DNA of 64,000 nt from a virus, in the IMG/VR virus record IMGVR_UViG_3300042691_019786; one strand, 5' to 3'. The translations under genes were made by a program, and so were the position numbers. Position 1 is the stretch's first letter. Every line of letters starts with the position of its first letter. Below are positions 4,564 through 33,164 of the stretch, piece after piece. The notes beneath the pieces are model-generated. The model searched no databases and was not told the origin of the DNA. It saw nothing but the letters and a program-made list of their open reading frames with translations.

Positions 4564-5193
4564 CTAGTCCCACCATTTTCTAATATTGTCAGCTAAAATC
4601 TTAAACAATAATCTATGACATCTTTCTTGATTCTCATGTGCAATCTCCATTGCATAGATTTGTTTATTTTTAGCTTCATCATCGTATCTAGTAAATCTAG
4701 ATAATTCACCACTGACAGCTTTTTTATATTGTCTTGGGTATTTCTTAAAGAACTCATCGAAATTCTCTGATAATTCATCGCTTTTCCATTCGTATGTTTT
4801 TTCACCAGCAAATTCTTTATCGCTTTCAACAAAATAATGTTTACTCTTATGGTAATCCATATATTCCATGTTGTAAGTTTCATCTTGTTCTAATTCAATT
4901 AGTCTAGCGACAAGATTCATAATTTCAGCATCACGTTTTGCACTAGTATGGAAATCTCTTTCAGCAATATATTTTGCTTGTCTTTTGATTTTAAATTTTA
5001 AAACCTCAAAGATATAATGGTCGTCCCAATCTCTGTCTTTCCATATAATTGGAAACCACGATATCAAATTTTTAACGCTAATCACAAAGTTACGTGGGTA
5101 ATATCTAAGGTCTTGTAACCACCATCTTATTTTATCAAACATTGTTGATTTGTAATCATCAAAATCAATAATTTCTTTTACTTTATCTTCCAT
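4564..5193 (-). CDS. phage hypothetical protein
   Basis: WFPIIWKDRDWD...WWD; ends in TAG. Confidence 0.6.
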   Translation of the reverse strand: MEDKVKEIIDFDDYKSTMFDKIRWWLQDLRYYPRNFVISVKNLISWFPIIWKDRDWDDHYIFEVLKFKIKRQAKYIAERDFHTSAKRDAEIMNLVARLIELEQDETYNMEYMDYHKSKHYFVESDKEFAGEKTYEWKSDELSENFDEFFKKYPRQYKKAVSGELSRFTRYDDEAKNKQIYAMEIAHENQERCHRLLFKILADNIRKWWD

Positions 5194-6138: not shown

Positions 6139-6681
6139 TTATGCAAATTTTATGAAACCTTTTTTAATTAAATCGTGAATATATGATGAATGGTGAATGT
6201 TTTTCTCATTTGCATACCCAATTGACATGTGCATTCCGAAATATGGTCTACCCAAACCTAATTCATCTCTAATTGATTGGAGTTGTTCTCTTTCTTCATG
6301 TGGAATGTTTAACCACCAATGTTCTGAGTTGGTTCTAGGGTCTAAGTCTAAGACTATATCAATTTTTTTACCATCCCATTTTTTCTTAACTTCTTCCCAT
6401 TTAGCTTCAACTTCTTCTGCTGACAACACACCGTTTTGTGATAAATCTTTCATACTATCGTTGATAAATGAAATGTGAGCACCACGTAGCGGTTTGTTTA
6501 ATATAAGATTGTATCTTTTCTTGATGAACCATGCATAATATTCAGCAACGTCACCATCAAAAAATACCATAGCAATCTTCTTCCAAGAAGATTGGTTAGA
6601 ATGTTTCTTAGTTCGGTCCTCTGGCTCGAACCCAATAGTTCCAGATAATGTTATTCTTCCTTGCATTTTCTCTTCGTTCAT
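6139..6681 (-). CDS. 2H phosphoesterase-family protein
   Basis: two HxS motifs (AHISFI, MHMSIG) with typical spacing. Confidence 0.7.
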   Translation of the reverse strand: MNEEKMQGRITLSGTIGFEPEDRTKKHSNQSSWKKIAMVFFDGDVAEYYAWFIKKRYNLILNKPLRGAHISFINDSMKDLSQNGVLSAEEVEAKWEEVKKKWDGKKIDIVLDLDPRTNSEHWWLNIPHEEREQLQSIRDELGLGRPYFGMHMSIGYANEKNIHHSSYIHDLIKKGFIKFA

Positions 6682-7180
6682 AACTTGTGGTTATAAATCC
6701 TTTTTGTGGTGAAAAATTCATTGGATTATAGATTGTTTGTGTTGGTTCCAAACCAACACATTCCAATAACTCAAAAAATTCATCTTTCTTTTTAATTTGA
6801 CCTCTTAAATCTTTAAGTATTTGTGCATCAATCTCTTTAGCTATCTCATCACTTAATAATTTGATAAGTTCAGCTTCGGCATCCATGATACCATATCGTT
6901 GTAAATCAGTTATTCTTTCTTCTGACCATACAGCATTTATCCTTTTAGTTCCAAGTGATAGCTTATATGCGTTTTCATCATAACCTTTTGAAAAATACCA
7001 TTTTTTGATTACTTCTTGAGTAAAGTCTACTTCATGGTTAAATATTTTAACTAGATATTGTAATAAATTAAAACCCCATTCTTGAGTGTCATCATATTTG
7101 ATTATAAAGACACCTTCTTTTACGTGATAATATTTATCTAAATACCTAGTAATTTCTTGTTCTTTCTCAAAATCTTCCAT
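6608..7180 (-). CDS. hypothetical protein containing a gp23 major-capsid-like segment
   Basis: KRINAVWSEE..DLQ.YG..DAEAELIKLLSDEIAKEIDAQILKDLR resembles the T4-type capsid spine helix. Confidence 0.55.
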   Translation of the reverse strand: MEDFEKEQEITRYLDKYYHVKEGVFIIKYDDTQEWGFNLLQYLVKIFNHEVDFTQEVIKKWYFSKGYDENAYKLSLGTKRINAVWSEERITDLQRYGIMDAEAELIKLLSDEIAKEIDAQILKDLRGQIKKKDEFFELLECVGLEPTQTIYNPMNFSPQKGFITTSYERRENARKNNIIWNYWVRARGPN

Positions 7181-16529: not shown

Positions 16530-17654
16530 TTACAACATTTTATATAACGTTTTATCGTCATAGTTAAACATATATTCTTCAACTGATGCTATTTTGTAAT
16601 CTTTCAACCCAAAATACAACCCAGTAAAGTTTTTTAAATCATATTTCTCACAAACTTCAAACACAGCAGCAGCAAACTTTTTTTGTTCTGGTTTTGTTAC
16701 GTTTTTTGGTTTACGCAACTTTAATTCATCCCATACAACATTCAATTTTGCAACCAACGCATCGTAAGACTCTTTAAGACGATTTAATTCTTCTGTTCTT
16801 TCTGGGAAAGTAGCAGCAAATTCTTCTATCTCGTTAGTTTTTACAATAGTTAATATGTTGTGTTCAGCAGTTTTACCTTTCAAGTGGTGTACCGCAACAT
16901 ATGCTGGATTTTTCACTTTAACACGATTGTCATTACCATCACGTACAACATAACCTTCTTCAGACCATGGCATACCTTCAAATGTTTTCAACAAGTGACC
17001 AACATTTTTTGCGTTTAAATCAAAAGATTTTACCAATGGTATATCCAATGATACCGCAGTCATTTCCAAGTCTCTCCCAGACAACTCAACAAGTGTTTTT
17101 CTGTTTCTAACAGCCAACAAAGTCGCTGATGATTCACCATGTGGTTTTACTACTATGTTATATGGTGTAGTTAACTCAAACACATAGATATAATCATAAT
17201 TTAACAAACATGCATTGAATGTGTATTTGTTGTTAACAGTATCCCAAAACAATTCGTTAAATTTAGTACCATTTTTGTTGTTAACTTCACCTTCACCGTT
17301 TGCAGTACCAGTAGTACCAGCATACCATGTCATGTCGTGCCAATCATAATACACTTGTATCATAGTACCATCCAATTTTTCAAGTACTTGTGCAGTATTC
17401 CAATCTATTTTAGCAGCGTTACCTTCTTCAGAGTTGAAGAATTTTCTAAACGCCAAAGACATTACGTTCCAAGTACCTTTTTCAAGGATGATTCCACGAC
17501 AATCTTGCATCTCTGGCAATGACATAAGTGTTGGTGACACTAATTGGTCATACTTCAAGAGTATTTTGTGTTCATACTCTCTAGTTTTTAAAGAAAAGTC
17601 TTTGATTGTTTTTTCTAAACCGTGTGTTCTTAAATATTTTTGTATAGCTAACAT
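16530..17654 (-). CDS. T4 Rnl1-like RNA ligase
   Basis: CRGIIL, KFFN, EKLDGT (motif I), FELTTPYNIVV, EEGYVV, RVKVK. Confidence 0.85.
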   Translation of the reverse strand: MLAIQKYLRTHGLEKTIKDFSLKTREYEHKILLKYDQLVSPTLMSLPEMQDCRGIILEKGTWNVMSLAFRKFFNSEEGNAAKIDWNTAQVLEKLDGTMIQVYYDWHDMTWYAGTTGTANGEGEVNNKNGTKFNELFWDTVNNKYTFNACLLNYDYIYVFELTTPYNIVVKPHGESSATLLAVRNRKTLVELSGRDLEMTAVSLDIPLVKSFDLNAKNVGHLLKTFEGMPWSEEGYVVRDGNDNRVKVKNPAYVAVHHLKGKTAEHNILTIVKTNEIEEFAATFPERTEELNRLKESYDALVAKLNVVWDELKLRKPKNVTKPEQKKFAAAVFEVCEKYDLKNFTGLYFGLKDYKIASVEEYMFNYDDKTLYKML

Positions 17655-18951: not shown

Positions 18952-19848
18952 TCATTGTTTTTTTATTTCAGTGACAATACCACTTATCATAAATGATTTA
19001 ATGTCTTGCCATTTTGTTATTTGATTGCTCATAACTGGTTTACCACCATCTGGGTTAATCGCAATAGTTATATGTGGAATTTCATTTTTTGATGGATAAC
19101 CGCTAACTCTTACAGCCATAGCTTTATCTGAAAGACCTAACGCTTCAACTGTCAATGTAACTTCTTTACCTAAATCAGTTTTATCTTTAAGTTCACCCAA
19201 ATTTATTGTCATATGATGTGTTATCACAGTCCAATCTTTTGGTATCCATATACCAAGTTTATCCAATAACGTACCTTTGGATTGTCCATCCAACAAAACA
19301 CAAGAATATAACACATCTGATTGTTTATACATATCTTTAGATTCAACTATTTTTTTAACAGTCAATGGCCCAACAGATTTATGTGAATCCATCATCATTT
19401 TTATTTTATCTAATGGAACTCCATGTGTATTTGACTCAGCTAATTGCTCAGCAGTCAAGTTACGAGTGCCAACATCATGTATTTGTATGTTGTTATCATC
19501 AAATCCCATTTCCAACGCTGCAACAACATATGCTTTAGCCTCATTGGCTTTGATATTCGTGTTATCTATTACAACTGGACTAATACCATCTTTCATAGAT
19601 TTGATTGCGTTAGATAAGTTCTTAGAGTGCATTCTAGACAAATCTTTAAAGTCTCCAGACTCTATCATTTTAGCAAAGAAACCTCTGTAGTCACCAGTAG
19701 CTTCAATTAAATCATCTGTTGAATGAATTATCCCTTCACCCATTAGTGATTTCGCCATTGTTGATTTTCCAGCCCCAGGAATACCACGCATCACAAACAA
19801 TTTTTGTGATGGTCTAGTTATTTCGATATTTAAAACATTTTTTTTCAT
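18952..19848 (-). CDS. P-loop polynucleotide kinase fused to a 2H cyclic phosphodiesterase (RNA end-healing)
   Basis: MRGIPGAGKST, VIDNTN, HGVP; C-terminal HHMTI and PHITIA. Confidence 0.8.
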   Translation of the reverse strand: MKKNVLNIEITRPSQKLFVMRGIPGAGKSTMAKSLMGEGIIHSTDDLIEATGDYRGFFAKMIESGDFKDLSRMHSKNLSNAIKSMKDGISPVVIDNTNIKANEAKAYVVAALEMGFDDNNIQIHDVGTRNLTAEQLAESNTHGVPLDKIKMMMDSHKSVGPLTVKKIVESKDMYKQSDVLYSCVLLDGQSKGTLLDKLGIWIPKDWTVITHHMTINLGELKDKTDLGKEVTLTVEALGLSDKAMAVRVSGYPSKNEIPHITIAINPDGGKPVMSNQITKWQDIKSFMISGIVTEIKKQ

Positions 19849-20840: not shown

Positions 20841-20896
20841 AGTTAAGTTTTACATTAATAAATATATAAAACTATACTAATAAAGATAACATTTTG

Positions 20897-20981
20897 CGGA
20901 GAGCAGAGGAATCGAACCTCATACCAAAAAGGTACGTCACGATTAGCAGTCGGACCCTATCGCCATCAAGGATTACTCTCC
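20897..20981 (-). tRNA. tRNA-Ser(GCT)
   Basis: GGAGAG/CTCTCC acceptor, loop CT-GCT-AA, long variable arm, GGTTCGATTCC; no encoded CCA. Confidence 0.85.
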
Positions 20982-20987
20982 ATTTTG

Positions 20988-21060
20988 TACCCCCACAGAG
21001 ATTCGAACTCCGATACTGGCCTTAGAAGGGCCATGTCCTATCCAGTTGAACGATAGGGGC
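20988..21060 (-). tRNA. tRNA-Arg(TCT)
   Basis: TGGCC-CT-TCT-AA-GGCCA anticodon arm; full cloverleaf. Confidence 0.9.
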
Positions 21061-21069
21061 AGATTGTTG

Positions 21070-21142
21070 TACACCTACAGAGATTCGAACTCCGATTTAT
21101 CGCTTCGTAGGCGATTGTCCTATCCAGTTGAACGATAAGTGC
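21070..21142 (-). tRNA. tRNA-Arg(ACG)
   Basis: ATCGC-CT-ACG-AA-GCGAT; D and T arms nearly identical to Arg(TCT). Confidence 0.9.
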
Positions 21143-21148
21143 ATGTTG

Positions 21149-21218
21149 TACCGACTGTGAGGTTCGAACTCACTTAACCATCCATATGAGGGACGGTCCT
21201 TTTCCACTAAGTGTCGGC
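21149..21218 (-). tRNA. atypical tRNA with CAT anticodon (Met or Ile2)
   Basis: CGTCC-CT-CAT-AT-GGATG; good T arm; shortened D region; 70 nt. Confidence 0.65.
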
Positions 21219-21224
21219 ATTTTG

Positions 21225-21326
21225 CTCACCCACTAGGATTCGAACCTAGGACCTAACGGTTAACACTCCTTGTATGAACTTACTTATCATACCTAGCCGT
21301 TTGCTCTACCACTGAGCTATGGGTGA
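21225..21326 (-). tRNA. tRNA-Asn(GTT) with a 30-nt insertion in the anticodon loop
   Basis: AACGG-CT-[30 nt]-GTT-AA-CCGTT; all other arms canonical. Confidence 0.85.
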
Positions 21327-21336
21327 ATATTTGTTG

Positions 21337-21410
21337 CTCTCCCTCTAGGATTCGAACCTAGGACCCACGCATTAACAGTGCGTTGCTCTAACCTACTGAG
21401 CTAAAGGAGA
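21337..21410 (-). tRNA. tRNA-Asn(GTT)
   Basis: ACGCA-CT-GTT-AA-TGCGT; full cloverleaf. Confidence 0.92.
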
Positions 21411-21420
21411 ATATATTTTG

Positions 21421-21497
21421 TACAGAAGGTGAGATTCGAACTCACATGTGACCAACTACCCTTTCTACAAGATATAAGCTTGAGGGGATACATCTGC
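21421..21497 (-). tRNA. non-canonical tRNA-like RNA with TAT anticodon (Ile), no normal D arm
   Basis: acceptor GCAGATG/CTTCTGT; T arm GTGAG-TTCGAAT-CTCAC; CAAG-CT-TAT-AT-CTTG hairpin. Confidence 0.55.
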
Positions 21498-21503
21498 ATC
21501 TTG

Positions 21504-21575
21504 TTGTCTAACCCAGACTCGAACTGGAAATACTGCCGTATCAGAGCAGCGTGATAACCATTTCACCATTAGACA
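21504..21575 (-). tRNA. tRNA-Ile(GAT), unusual body (U1-A72)
   Basis: CTGCT-CT-GAT-AC-GGCAG; acceptor TGTCTAA/TTAGACA. Confidence 0.75.
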
Positions 21576-21586
21576 AAATTGTGGAA

Positions 21587-21775
21587 TTACTTCCACTGTG
21601 TTTTTCGGTAGTGTTTCCAAGTTTTATACATTCTAACTTGATAACTCATTTTGTTTCCATAGAAACGAATACCTTCATCCCAATAAATTGGGTAGAAATC
21701 ATTGATTAACATGATTCGGTATTGTCTACCATTTTGTGCTTTGTTCAGTTTTGCTCTGTTTACGTTTTTACTCAT
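21587..21775 (-). CDS. small basic protein within the tRNA array
   Basis: MSKNVNRAKL...WKHYRKTQWK. Confidence 0.55.
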   Translation of the reverse strand: MSKNVNRAKLNKAQNGRQYRIMLINDFYPIYWDEGIRFYGNKMSYQVRMYKTWKHYRKTQWK

Positions 21776-21845
21776 AATGTTGTGAGTCTGTGAATAGCAG
21801 ACCTTACAACATATCAAATTCTTTTTTCATAAAATTAAATTTTAG

Positions 21846-21932
21846 CGGAGAGGGTGGGACTCGAACCCACACACCTCTAGGGCCTACCGCTTTCAAGGCG
21901 GTTGCAGTTAGGCCAACTCTGCTTACCTCTCC
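21846..21932 (-). tRNA. tRNA-Ser(TGA)
   Basis: ACCGC-CT-TGA-AA-GCGGT; long variable arm. Confidence 0.9.
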
Positions 21933-21964
21933 GTATTTATAATTAACTAATATTCAGTTAATTG

Positions 21965-22035
21965 CACAAGTAGAGAGACTCGAACTCCCGTCAACGGTTT
22001 TGGAGACCGCTATTCTACCACTGAACTATACTTGT
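21965..22035 (-). tRNA. tRNA-Trp(CCA)
   Basis: GCGGT-CT-CCA-AA-ACCGT; full cloverleaf. Confidence 0.9.
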
Positions 22036-22050
22036 GTATTAATTTACCAA

Positions 22051-22063
22051 CATGTCAAAGAAC
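22051..22063 (-). promoter_or_regulatory. boxA-like antitermination element
   Basis: GTTCTTTGACATG; similar GTTCTTTA at 31811-31820 and 33171-33178, each ahead of stable-RNA genes. Confidence 0.5.
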
Positions 22064-22075
22064 TTACAGTTCAAG

Positions 22076-22148
22076 GGTGATTAACCAGAATCGAACTGGT
22101 ATCAATAGAATCACAATCTATCATGTTAACCGTTACACCATAACCACC
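22076..22148 (-). tRNA. tRNA-His(GTG)
   Basis: G-1:C73 pair; ATAGA-TT-GTG-AT-TCTAT. Confidence 0.9.
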
Positions 22149-22150
22149 AT

Positions 22151-22729
22151 TTATTTATTCTTACCAGCGTATGTTTCAGTTTGTGAATGACAATTAGGAC
22201 ATAAAAAACGTAAATTTTCTATTCTATTATCATTATTTATACCGTTAATATGGTCTATTTGTAATATTAGTTTACCACCCATCCATTCACCAGTATTACC
22301 ACAACTTACACATTTATACTCTAATAAATTACTTCTTAACACTCTATTCTTTAAATGACCAGAATTATATTGTGAATTTTCACAAAATATTTCAGAATCA
22401 CTATATTTTACCTTAGTAACGTTTCTTCTAGGGTTACCTTTATATAAATCATTATCTATTCCATATAAATCAAAATACCTTTTTAACGTTCTATAATTAC
22501 CAGCTTTTAGTGTTAAACCCATTTTTTCTAACACTTCAGCTTTAGAATTTGAAGATTCTATTAAAGGTTTTAATTCTTCAAAACTCCATTTATGATAATA
22601 TTTTTTAGGTTTAAGACCATATTTATCTGCCCAATATCTTATAGTCGTTAATGATTTATTAGTTTTTTTACTTATTTGTCTTAAAGATAAACCTTCTTTA
22701 AGAAGTTTTTCTAATTCTATTTTTTCCAT
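22151..22729 (-). CDS. HNH homing endonuclease
   Basis: N-terminal HTH; CVSCG...LQIDHINGINNDNRIENLRFLCPNCHSQT. Confidence 0.9.
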   Translation of the reverse strand: MEKIELEKLLKEGLSLRQISKKTNKSLTTIRYWADKYGLKPKKYYHKWSFEELKPLIESSNSKAEVLEKMGLTLKAGNYRTLKRYFDLYGIDNDLYKGNPRRNVTKVKYSDSEIFCENSQYNSGHLKNRVLRSNLLEYKCVSCGNTGEWMGGKLILQIDHINGINNDNRIENLRFLCPNCHSQTETYAGKNK

Positions 22730-22786
22730 ATTTATGTTTTTATATAAATATAGAATAATAGTTCAAAAAGTAAATATCACTTTAAA

Positions 22787-22821
22787 AATCTAGCACTCTA
22801 ACCAACTGAGCTAACGCCACC
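22787..22821 (-). pseudogene. 5' half of a tRNA (His-like), truncated after U33
   Basis: GGTGGCGT-TAGCTCAGTTGGTTAGAGT-G-CTAGA-TT then unrelated sequence; lies just upstream of the HNH. Confidence 0.75.
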
Positions 22822-23001
22822 GTCTATTGTAACAAATATTATTATGTTACCGTTTTCTTTTTTAAATCTTAGGTCACCGTTGTAACCCATTTGTTTTGCT
22901 TTTTCTTTATACTCGTCAACTATTTCATCAAAGTTTTCGTTAAACTTTTTTACTTTTACTTTTCCGAGTGGTCTTACTAATTCTTCCATAGTTATAAGCA
23001 T

Positions 23002-23034
23002 AAAAAAAGCCTTGATTTGTGGTCAAGGCTTTTT
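23002..23034 (-). terminator. intrinsic terminator of the putative attenuator
   Basis: AGCCTTGA-CCACAAA-TCAAGGCT followed by a T run. Confidence 0.8.
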
Positions 23035-23059
23035 GTTGATTACTTCATAAAATGTTTTA

Positions 23060-23155
23060 CTATTCTATGATGTTATTTAACATACCTTGACCGTTATGGA
23101 AACTATTGCGTCTCCAATTATTAATCGAAATCATATGTATGTTAATTGTTCTCAT
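23060..23155 (-). CDS. putative attenuator leader peptide (31 aa, not in ORF track)
   Basis: MRTINIHMISINNWRRNSFHNGQGMLNNIIE; lies between a promoter and the terminator; contains GGTCAAGGT, complementary to the terminator 5' arm. Confidence 0.75.
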   Translation of the reverse strand: MRTINIHMISINNWRRNSFHNGQGMLNNIIE

Positions 23156-23203
23156 TTTTATATTAAATATATCGTTTTTTCTAAAAAGTTTAAATTTATA
23201 CTA

Positions 23204-23235
23204 CAAATGTACAAACTTTTTTTCTATTTGTCAAG
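23204..23235 (-). promoter_or_regulatory. Bacteroidota-type sigma70 promoter for the leader and tRNA array
   Basis: TTG (-33-like) and TACATTTG (-7 box, TAnnTTTG). Confidence 0.7.
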
Positions 23236-25112: not shown

Positions 25113-26243
25113 TCAAAAAATAAATATATCTAGATAAAGTTTTTTAAAATTATCAGTTTCTAGTCTTTGTATTTCTTTACCTAATTCTGGTCCTTGTTTT
25201 AACCCCATCTTTGTCATTAGGTCTGAACCATTAACCGTTAATTTAAATAATAAAAATGTATCTATAATCTTTACATCAATACCACTTAATTGAGCAAATC
25301 TAGTTATTTGTTCTGCTGTTACACCAGATGTCTTTTCAGCTTTTTTAAGCGTTACAGCTGTATCAATCGACAAATTCAATAGACTAATCAAAAATGTAAT
25401 AGCTCTTATTTCATCAATTGAGTATTTTAATTTGTTCAATTGTTTTGTTAATAAATCAACTTTATTATTCTTTAACAACATTGCTAAAACAATAATTATA
25501 TCATTATCTTCAATGAAATTTTTATTAACATTAACATCTTTAAAAACCCAATCAAATAAATTGTATTTGTCAATCATTTTTAAAAACGATTTTACAGATT
25601 TTGCTGATTTGATACCTTTCAAAAACTCATCTCTGATTCTTTCACCAGATATACCTTCCAAACTAGCATCTTTTTGCAATGCAGCGTCAACTGATGGGTC
25701 TAATTCACTACCAAATCTACCAGCAAATCTAATTGCTCTTAATATACGTAATCTATCTTCACCAAATCTATCTTCAGCTGCACCTACAGTCCTTACAACA
25801 CTGTTTTTAAGGTCTTCTATACCATCAACCAAATCAACAACTTCTGACGTGTCTATATCGTAAAATAATGCGTTGATTGTTAAGTCACGTCTTTTAACGT
25901 CACCTACTATATCTGTAAAACTAACACCATCTGGTCTTCTACCGCTAGATAAGTCTTCCCTAAAAGTTGCGATTTCGTATTCACCCATATCAGTAAAGAC
26001 GTTGATAACACCAAATGCTTTACCAGTTGGTAAAGTTCTAAAACCACCTTTAGCCATTATGTCTTCCACTTGGTCTGGGATAGCATCGGTTGCCAAATCG
26101 TAATCTTTAGGTGTTTTACCTAACAACGCATCACGCACTGCACCACCTACAACATATAGGTTAAAACCATTTTGCTTAAAAACATCTTTTATTTGTAAAA
26201 TGTCTTTTGGTATTGGCATATCAAATATAATTCTCTTTTCCAT
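25113..26243 (-). CDS. cca: CCA-adding tRNA nucleotidyltransferase
   Basis: VGGAVRD..KDYDLAT, RRDLTINA, EDRLRILRAIRF, ERIRDE; the tRNAs here lack encoded CCA. Confidence 0.85.
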   Translation of the reverse strand: MEKRIIFDMPIPKDILQIKDVFKQNGFNLYVVGGAVRDALLGKTPKDYDLATDAIPDQVEDIMAKGGFRTLPTGKAFGVINVFTDMGEYEIATFREDLSSGRRPDGVSFTDIVGDVKRRDLTINALFYDIDTSEVVDLVDGIEDLKNSVVRTVGAAEDRFGEDRLRILRAIRFAGRFGSELDPSVDAALQKDASLEGISGERIRDEFLKGIKSAKSVKSFLKMIDKYNLFDWVFKDVNVNKNFIEDNDIIIVLAMLLKNNKVDLLTKQLNKLKYSIDEIRAITFLISLLNLSIDTAVTLKKAEKTSGVTAEQITRFAQLSGIDVKIIDTFLLFKLTVNGSDLMTKMGLKQGPELGKEIQRLETDNFKKLYLDIFIF

Positions 26244-27671: not shown

Positions 27672-27723
27672 AACTTTTTTTTAATAAATATATCAATAAT
27701 AATGCCAAAGTAAACATTATTTG

Positions 27724-27794
27724 TGGTCTTAGAGGGAATCGAACCCTCACTATCGGTTTTAGAGACCGTTACGCTGCCGTTACATCATAAGACC
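27724..27794 (-). tRNA. amber suppressor tRNA (anticodon CTA)
   Basis: GGTCTTA/TAAGACC acceptor; ACGGT-CT-CTA-AA-ACCGA; GAGGG-TTCGATT-CCCTC; own TACATTTG box at 27808-27815. Confidence 0.88.
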
Positions 27795-30589: not shown

Positions 30590-30595
30590 TTTTAG

Positions 30596-30665
30596 TAGCG
30601 AACTCGGAATCGAACCACCCTTCAAGGTTATGAGCCTCGTGTGCAACCTCTTACACCATAACGCA
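30596..30665 (-). pseudogene. degenerate initiator-type tRNA-Met(CAT)
   Basis: CGAGG-CT-CAT-AA-CCTTG is intact, but the acceptor and T stems are largely unpaired. Confidence 0.55.
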
Positions 30666-30670
30666 ATATA

Positions 30671-31177: not shown

Positions 31178-31264
31178 ACAAATACTTTTAAAATTTATTA
31201 ACTTCTTAGTCACCATTTAGGTGTGCAATAACCACTACGTGCAAGTGAGTTAATTTCGGTTATC

Positions 31265-31336
31265 TAGCGGAGGAAGGAATCGAACCCCCGACCTCAAGGT
31301 TATGAGCCTTGCGAGCTACCTCTGCTCTACTCCGCA
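31265..31336 (-). tRNA. initiator tRNA-fMet(CAT)
   Basis: 1:72 mismatch; CAAGG-CT-CAT-AA-CCTTG; full cloverleaf. Confidence 0.85.
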
Positions 31337-31341
31337 ATGTG

Positions 31342-32688: not shown

Positions 32689-32804
32689 AGTTTTGTTTTT
32701 AATATAAATATGCTAAAAAATAAAAAACCCCCAGTAAAGCGACTTACTGAGGGTAATAATTTCATTACTCACGGATATTTGTTTGAGAATGAATCTGTTA
32801 AGAG

Positions 32805-33164
32805 TGGAGTATACGGGAATCGAACCCGTGTGTTGAATATTCTTCAATGCTTTCTACATGTTTAGGACATAGTTTTCAAACTATCCGAAATTTCGCTACC
32901 TCTTTTTACCGTGTAATTTAAGCTTCACACCAGATGGATTACCATTATCTTAGTGGATTACCACCATCGGTAGGTTACTACCATATGCAATATTAGGCTA
33001 CTGCAAGCTCTCCGTTAGAAACGAATGTCGCTTCATCAAGGAAATTTTCTGATACGATTAAATCGTTGTCAATTCTTGTTCTAATAGACAGTTTAAAGTG
33101 CTTCCAATCTAGCACTACATGCTTACTACCTACGACTATACCCAGTCAATACCTTAAATACCCC
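32805..33164 (-). ncRNA. ssrA: tmRNA
   Basis: GGGGTAT/ATACTCC-A acceptor with G3.U70; TTGAC; T arm; tag ORF DNDLIVSENFLDEATFVSNGELAVA* at 32993-33070. Confidence 0.9.

Follow-up and report, generated by a model that had tools for sequence, protein, structure and literature searches.

Leader-peptide attenuators control amino acid operons in enterobacteria, with the multivalent thr, ilvGMEDA, and ilvBN systems and those of trp, his, leu, and pheA as examples. The locus described here lies in a 64,000-nucleotide stretch of viral DNA (IMG/VR record IMGVR_UViG_3300042691_019786; the window) and carries on the minus strand, as it does the other genes and motifs placed below, a short leader open reading frame (ORF), an intrinsic terminator, and a block of tRNA genes, an arrangement that we read with high confidence as a ribosome-stalling attenuator switching on tRNA supply when the cognate codons are decoded slowly. 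The unit has in common with the thr/ilv-type attenuators a short, putatively translated leader with regulatory codons, the segment pairings 2:3 and 3:4, a candidate 1:2 pairing, the use of rare codons, and the footprint geometry. Five of the six computable structural features of a ribosome-mediated attenuator are present: a promoter motif, a codon-enriched ORF, an intrinsic terminator, a mutually exclusive antiterminator, and the placement of the regulatory codons; the sixth is the candidate 1:2 helix. It differs from the amino acid operon attenuators in that the genes behind it encode tRNAs rather than biosynthetic enzymes, up to seven amino acids would be sensed, the unit lies in a phage, and parallel modules cover the whole code. 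The Rfam amino acid leader families score below the cut-off (Phe_leader 21 and Thr_leader 20 bits versus 55, with the terminator part only), and the Rfam T-box gives no match at the leader locus. The unit would represent a known mechanism with a new target, a trp-type attenuator with tRNA as its output.

Several other systems share part of this logic. Escherichia coli pheST (pheM leader) likewise attenuates a translation-supply gene through the level of its own aminoacyl-tRNA, the differences being that the target is a synthetase, one amino acid is involved, and the operon is chromosomal. T-box riboswitches provide codon-specific antitermination reporting the state of a tRNA, but they recognize uncharged tRNA by direct binding, independently of translation, and would stay silent if the tRNA were destroyed. 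The trn operon/L-arrays of Anabaena are silent tRNA arrays switched on under translation stress, with an associated HNH gene and a co-regulated RNA ligase (PMC8421152, PMC10272220); they differ in using the protein repressor TrcR at promoter repeats and in a global, not codon-specific, response, and PMC8421152 makes no mention of "attenuat" or "leader." The whiB7/wblC upstream ORF attenuator responding after VapC5 tRNA cleavage (PMC10287673) also links cleavage, stalling, and attenuation, whereas it is a general stalling sensor for a transcription factor and is not matched to tRNA genes. In phage counter-defense, host tRNA that has been cleaved is replaced by phage tRNAs or mended by phage repair enzymes, with T4 Rnl/Pnk acting against PrrC and T5 tRNAs against PARIS and retrons (PMC10264068, PMC11464382, PMC11555353, PMC7824862); the accessible parts of this counter-defense literature describe no on-demand, codon-specific control, with neither "leader" nor "attenuat" in PMC7824862 and no "promoter" in PMC10264068. 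No published attenuator on tRNA genes was found in a literature search of incomplete coverage.

Architecture of the leader unit

The arrangement of elements upstream of the tRNA block largely follows that proposed in a reading of the window made from its sequence alone (the sequence-only reading). A predicted Bacteroidota-type promoter motif (TTG, 20 nt, TAnnTTTG) spans 23204-23234, with the proposed TAnnTTTG box present as TACATTTG at 23211-23204 and a TTG located 20 nt before it; in the form TTG-N19-21-TAnnTTTG the motif lies at 23234. Copies of this full motif number 22 on the coding strand and 5 on the other, and the TAnnTTTG box lies upstream of 43 of 44 related leaders. Closer to the leader, a second motif, ATATTTA(T/A) at 23163-23170, is probably a phage promoter element and is followed by an A-rich start context without a Shine-Dalgarno sequence. 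This motif precedes 17 minus-strand ORFs by no more than 60 nt, compared with 2.3 expected (23170, 22751, 23772, and 20865 are examples), and also 38 of the 44 leaders, and it is a candidate promoter for the phage sigma factor encoded at 57856-57035. Promoters of the TAnnTTTG type together with A-rich starts lacking Shine-Dalgarno sequences are described for Flavobacterium (PMC6847099), and the host is therefore likely to belong to the Bacteroidota.

The leader ORF (23060-23155) reads as 31 codons ending in TAG followed by TAA, with the codons as originally listed. Excluding the start codon, 18 of the 20 codons at positions 2-21 encode Trp, Ser, His, Ile, Asn, Met, or Arg (W, S, H, I, N, M, R; the amino acids of the WSHINMR block behind the leader), which becomes 19 of 21 when the start codon is counted. 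The background frequency of this amino acid set in the long ORFs of the window is 0.29 (binomial 2.6e-8), and an 18/20 match is reached in 0 of 200,000 sequences obtained by shuffling the bases of the leader. Within the predicted sensing zone, codons 2-18, the match is 16/17 with all seven amino acids present, which ranks best among 1036 ATG-started open 18-codon frames; the runner-up has 15/17 and five amino acids. The AT-rich N-terminal codons are common to several leader types and match in non-cognate leaders too, so the discriminating core is approximately codons 7-18 (12/12).

Three RNA pairings can be drawn through this region. Segment 2, the antiterminator (codons 22-24, 23084-23092), pairs with the 5' arm of the terminator over the predicted 9 bp (eight Watson-Crick and one G-U, -14.2). 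The terminator, segments 3:4 with the T-run (22996-23034), lies 30 nt past the stop codon, and its hairpin at 23034-23004 has 12 pairs and -13.5 kcal/mol. A gap of 23-36 nt between stop codon and terminator is kept in all 44 leaders of all four families. Segment 1, the putative protector (23137-23145), can pair with both segment 2 and the flank 3' of it (approximately 23085-23077), with codons 4-7 meeting the 3' flank in a nearly invariant 5-bp core whose own flanks are partly compensatory. Own versus swapped protector pairings give -11.5 versus -9.4, and 67.5% pairing in the alignment is accompanied by mixed controls; support for the 1:2 helix is moderate. A small hairpin over codons 14-20 lacks conservation, and no functional role is assigned to it. 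The transcript lacking the terminator 3' arm folds into the antiterminator, and the full-length transcript folds into the terminator. A 164-nt perfect piece spanning the terminator is found in lake metatranscriptome contigs and may derive from DNA.

The placement of the matched codons relative to segment 2 bears on the direction of the switch. Across leaders, 0.95-1.0 of the codons match between positions -8 and -4, counted in codons from the antiterminator, whereas the fraction is 0.38 at position -1 and 0.21 at position 0. Masking a modeled ribosome footprint of 6-12 nt on the window leader predicts that a stall at codons 2-18 frees the antiterminator, which becomes blocked from codon 20-21. 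The run of matching codons extends up to the last stall position from which segment 2 is still free (median offset 0, interquartile range -1 to +1, n = 44), and footprints of 6 or 12 nt move this offset by one codon. This geometry supports in the model the earlier proposal that stalling on leader codons frees the antiterminator, and from the position of the matched codons the likely direction is that stalling on cognate codons leads to read-through.

Leader codons and tRNA blocks in relatives

The strongest evidence is the cross-block match. tRNA clusters were located with Rfam in longer relatives and the upstream regions were then read, so that the four-block picture comes from the genomes of relatives, one of which (G003) has a neighbor protein 98% identical to that of the window. 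Two relatives, G001 and G008, have four blocks each (WSHINMR, CVL, FEDA, and PQYTGK), which together contain all 20 amino acids once, and every block is preceded by a leader and terminator of its own. Both match matrices are diagonal, with 17, 10, 13, and 17 (G001) and 16, 10, 11, and 17 (G008) of 17 codons matching the leader's own block versus 0-5 of 17 off the diagonal. In none of the 44 leaders is an amino acid of its block missing, with Met left out of the count beyond the start codon. In the distant 635-kb phage LR745206.1 (public; L182-L186) the tRNAs are regrouped into seven blocks (HFWK, RS, EY, IGAM, NRLVITM, PD, and Q), and the seven leaders follow these groupings, the true assignment ranking 1 of 5040. 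Three of its seven leader-gated blocks are internal serial gates, and the Gln-only block has a poly-Gln leader. The leaders at cluster heads also carry codons of the next block (Gln before PD->Q, Ser before HFWK->RS), which would fit serial gates in one transcript. In two independent sets of groupings, the codon content of the leaders varies with that of the arrays as expected, the match being better than chance and each leader fitting specifically the block that follows it. In LR756508.1 (484 kb), tRNAs in two of the regions read lack leaders of this kind and a third region has one doubtful short ORF, so the leader system is not universal.

The sequences themselves show the anatomy of the unit, its conservation and covariation, the block-specific codon content, and the geometry. 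There are 24 distinct WSHINMR leaders, and they keep the frame, the length (31-33 codons), and the gap to the terminator, with indels being whole codons. Some loci were located through neighboring proteins, which introduces no bias for the leader, and others through DNA motifs; the neighbor-protein loci again have the leader-terminator unit in front of a WSHINMR block. The antiterminator covaries with the terminator arm across relatives, own pairs giving -13.7 and swapped pairs -9.2 kcal/mol (22 pairs, permutation p<1e-5), so that leader and antiterminator are both conserved with compensatory changes. Variant residues stay inside the seven-letter alphabet in 21 of 22 cases in the sensing zone versus 19 of 58 downstream (Fisher 4e-7), with 41% in-alphabet variants expected from single-base changes. 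The leader unit is real and conserved and very probably functional. A search with one narrow pattern across genome contigs gave two unrelated chance matches with no terminator or block, a pattern that cannot show absence from bacterial chromosomes, and no cultured phage matches the leader above chance level. Of the matches to the first DNA pattern 8 of 10 were chance, as were most matches to a 14-mer. L013 has two WSHINMR leader-terminator units in tandem (5014-5159 and 6574-6720) with different antiterminators. A 10-codon ORF before a terminator is seen in L011 (2340), L015 (1875), and L029 (5478) and may be a chance feature where a conserved gene ends.

The sensing zone also contains information below the amino acid level. 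Both Arg boxes, both Ser boxes, ATY, and ATA are represented in 20 of 20 sensing-zone variants. Changes at third positions stay within the box, and codons rare in phage genes are kept (TCG 3%, CGC 1%). Box sampling and rare codons suggest that individual tRNA species are sensed. The original proposal that leader codons mirror the anticodons of the array holds at the level of amino acid and codon box, and a match to the exact anticodon has only partial support.

The tRNA block and its genome setting

The tRNA block occupies 20896-22147, its first tRNA being 862 nt downstream of the terminator, and contains His(GTG), Trp(CCA), Ser(TGA), Ile(GAT), an atypical TAT gene, Asn(GTT), a further Asn with a 30-nt insert, an atypical CAT gene, Arg(ACG), Arg(TCT), and Ser(GCT), the last called at a relaxed threshold only. 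This agrees with the His/Trp/Ser/Ile/Asn/Met/Arg content described by the sequence-only reading, apart from the TAT (21410-21492) and CAT (21146-21218) genes, both atypical and with no call by ARAGORN or Rfam. In the TAT gene the D arm is missing from its usual position; the anticodon arm is preceded by an extended helix that runs into it and followed by a D-loop-like TTGG motif, an organization kept in L013, L018, L149, and L159 with compensatory changes and TAT or CAT anticodons. The gene may have a rearranged tRNA fold that serves to read ATA, and a pattern search for it gave no match. The CAT-anticodon tRNA has a shortened D arm, may be Met or Ile2, and has similar genes in L016, L019, and L156. 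The second tRNA-Asn (21224-21326) carries its insert as a 30-nt hairpin in the anticodon loop and is also called in L011.

The order of terminator and array is as proposed, with additional elements between the two. Directly behind the terminator is a 63-codon ORF (22798-22989), conserved in relatives and without a Pfam or NCBIfam match, and this is followed by a His tRNA gene of which only the 5' half is left, the cut being at the anticodon loop (22787-22822), and an HNH endonuclease gene inserted in the block (22151-22729) with its own ATATTTAT motif at 22751. Over 22822-22075, the HNH gene lies between the cut His 5' half and a complete, different His tRNA, as if a homing endonuclease had invaded a His tRNA gene, bringing a replacement. 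Most relatives are without this gap and have the first tRNA within approximately 250 nt of the terminator, several at 36-69 nt.

The window has 30% G+C and encodes a sigma factor, ClpP, and a transfer-messenger RNA (tmRNA). Around the block are a T4 Rnl1-like RNA ligase (16530-17654, Pfam PF09511 above cut-off), a kinase plus cyclic phosphodiesterase resembling the Pnk end-healing enzyme (18952-19848; AAA_33, tRNA_lig_CPD), a CCA-adding-type nucleotidyltransferase (25113-26243), and Pth2 (27671-27321, Pfam PF01981). A tRNA with a CTA (amber) anticodon (27723-27794) lies just upstream of Pth2, and codon 3 of Pth2 is TAG. An in-frame stop is kept at Pth2 codon 3 or 4 in L029, L015, and L163, and TAG ends other genes; the suppressor tRNA may gate Pth2. 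The tmRNA (32804-33164) and two CAT tRNAs (31264-31337 and 30593-30667) have no leader seen before them, and a long non-coding stretch at approximately 31850-31340 has no Rfam match. Relatives are IMG/VR viral contigs of up to 306 kb, one estimated 86% complete, the window DNA is found in lake and freshwater metagenomes, and the source is presumably a jumbo phage.

Proposed operation and trigger of the switch

We infer translation of the leader, the direction of the switch in vivo, and its trigger. Transcription would start approximately 45 nt before the leader, with a ribosome following. When W-, S-, H-, I-, N-, M-, and R-tRNAs are ample, the ribosome would cross segment 2 and reach the stop codon; after full translation segment 2 would be covered or paired with segment 1, the terminator would form, and the block would be off. 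When any of these aminoacyl-tRNAs is scarce, the ribosome would halt with the hungry codon between positions 2 and 18, and segment 2 would pair with the emerging terminator 5' arm, allowing the polymerase to read into the tRNA genes. The newly made tRNA would relieve the stall as negative feedback, and the WSHINMR unit would be one of four modules jointly covering the 20 amino acids.

A number of points weigh against the attenuator reading. Shared ancestry, and the use of leader motifs in locating some relatives, mean that the p-values overstate independence, with approximately 11 independent leader-block pairs. A chance 18/20 stretch also occurs at +31962, antisense to a gene, so the single-window codon statistic alone is no proof. 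Some rare leader codons of other families (e.g. GCC, GAG) are without an exact anticodon in the respective block. Folding modeled without a ribosome also yields the antiterminator in nascent RNA (0.99 as long as the 3' arm is missing), termination being favored (0.99) solely at the full-length equilibrium, while with a stalled ribosome the equilibrium antiterminator share varies between 0.04 and 0.82; from this ambiguous model the outcome would depend on kinetics. Self-folding of the leader means that RNA structure may fix some codon choices. The ATATTTAT motif before the HNH gene is downstream of the terminator and may bypass the switch in this strain.

The best surviving alternative retains the same switch with amino acid starvation, sensed as uncharged tRNA, as its signal and with the tRNA genes co-induced. 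Starvation is the established trigger of the trp/his/ilv-type attenuators, and the match is cleanest at the amino acid level, some leader codons having no exact anticodon in the block. This trigger is nevertheless unlikely: extra tRNA supplies no extra amino acid, every split codon box is sampled in the 20 of 20 variants, and the neighboring genes are for RNA repair, not biosynthesis. The two explanations overlap, as missing and uncharged tRNA are indistinguishable to the switch, and differ in the selective trigger only.

A sensor responding to translation stress in general (antibiotics, slow elongation), with an amino acid content that is incidental or AT-driven, would accommodate the AT-rich N-terminal codons common to leader types and the one chance 18/20 stretch of the window, and the Anabaena tRNA array does respond to general translation stress (PMC8421152). 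It is very improbable, as the leaders of one genome differ and each fits its own block only (0-5 of 17 off the diagonal), and leader content tracks the regrouping in LR745206.1. We place at the same low level an opposite or absent switch, in which the terminator would end a small RNA or peptide gene and the tRNAs would be made from internal promoters or by constitutive antitermination. The ATATTTAT motif at 22751 and the dominance of the terminator in full-length folding are in keeping with this, whereas covariation of the antiterminator with the terminator arm, the lack of a full Bacteroidota promoter motif between 23234 and 19884, and a first tRNA 36-69 nt behind the terminator in several relatives argue against it, and the codon match is left unexplained. 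Chance features of an AT-rich intergenic region, for which the 30% G+C of the genome and the commonness of short ORFs and hairpins might speak, are refuted by the cross-block results along with conservation and covariation and carry next to no weight.

For the attenuator, the trigger would be that usable tRNA is lost, host anticodon nucleases or phage demand being the most plausible causes; starvation or high phage demand would act on the switch as tRNA depletion does. Because ribosomes stall at the codon of a cleaved tRNA (PMC10287673) and such attacks are countered by the tRNAs and repair enzymes of phages, defense-triggered depletion is plausible, and we give host tRNA cleavage about an even chance of being the trigger. 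The RNA ligase, end-healing enzyme, CCA enzyme, and Pth2 near the block are counted in favor of the attenuator reading. Equally balanced is our judgment of a modular feedback covering the whole code, in which jumbo phages would turn on each block during infection when its tRNAs are destroyed by host anticodon nucleases, with sensing by codon box. If true, the leaders would constitute a defense-agnostic alarm, and leader and block would co-evolve whenever tRNA genes regroup.

The role of phage tRNA arrays, codon compensation or replacement of destroyed host tRNA, is a long-open question. A block-wise switch responding to slow decoding points to on-demand replacement and is testable with simple reporters. 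It would extend attenuation from amino acid synthesis to tRNA supply, with up to seven inputs per leader, and the leaders could report which tRNAs a defense system cleaves.

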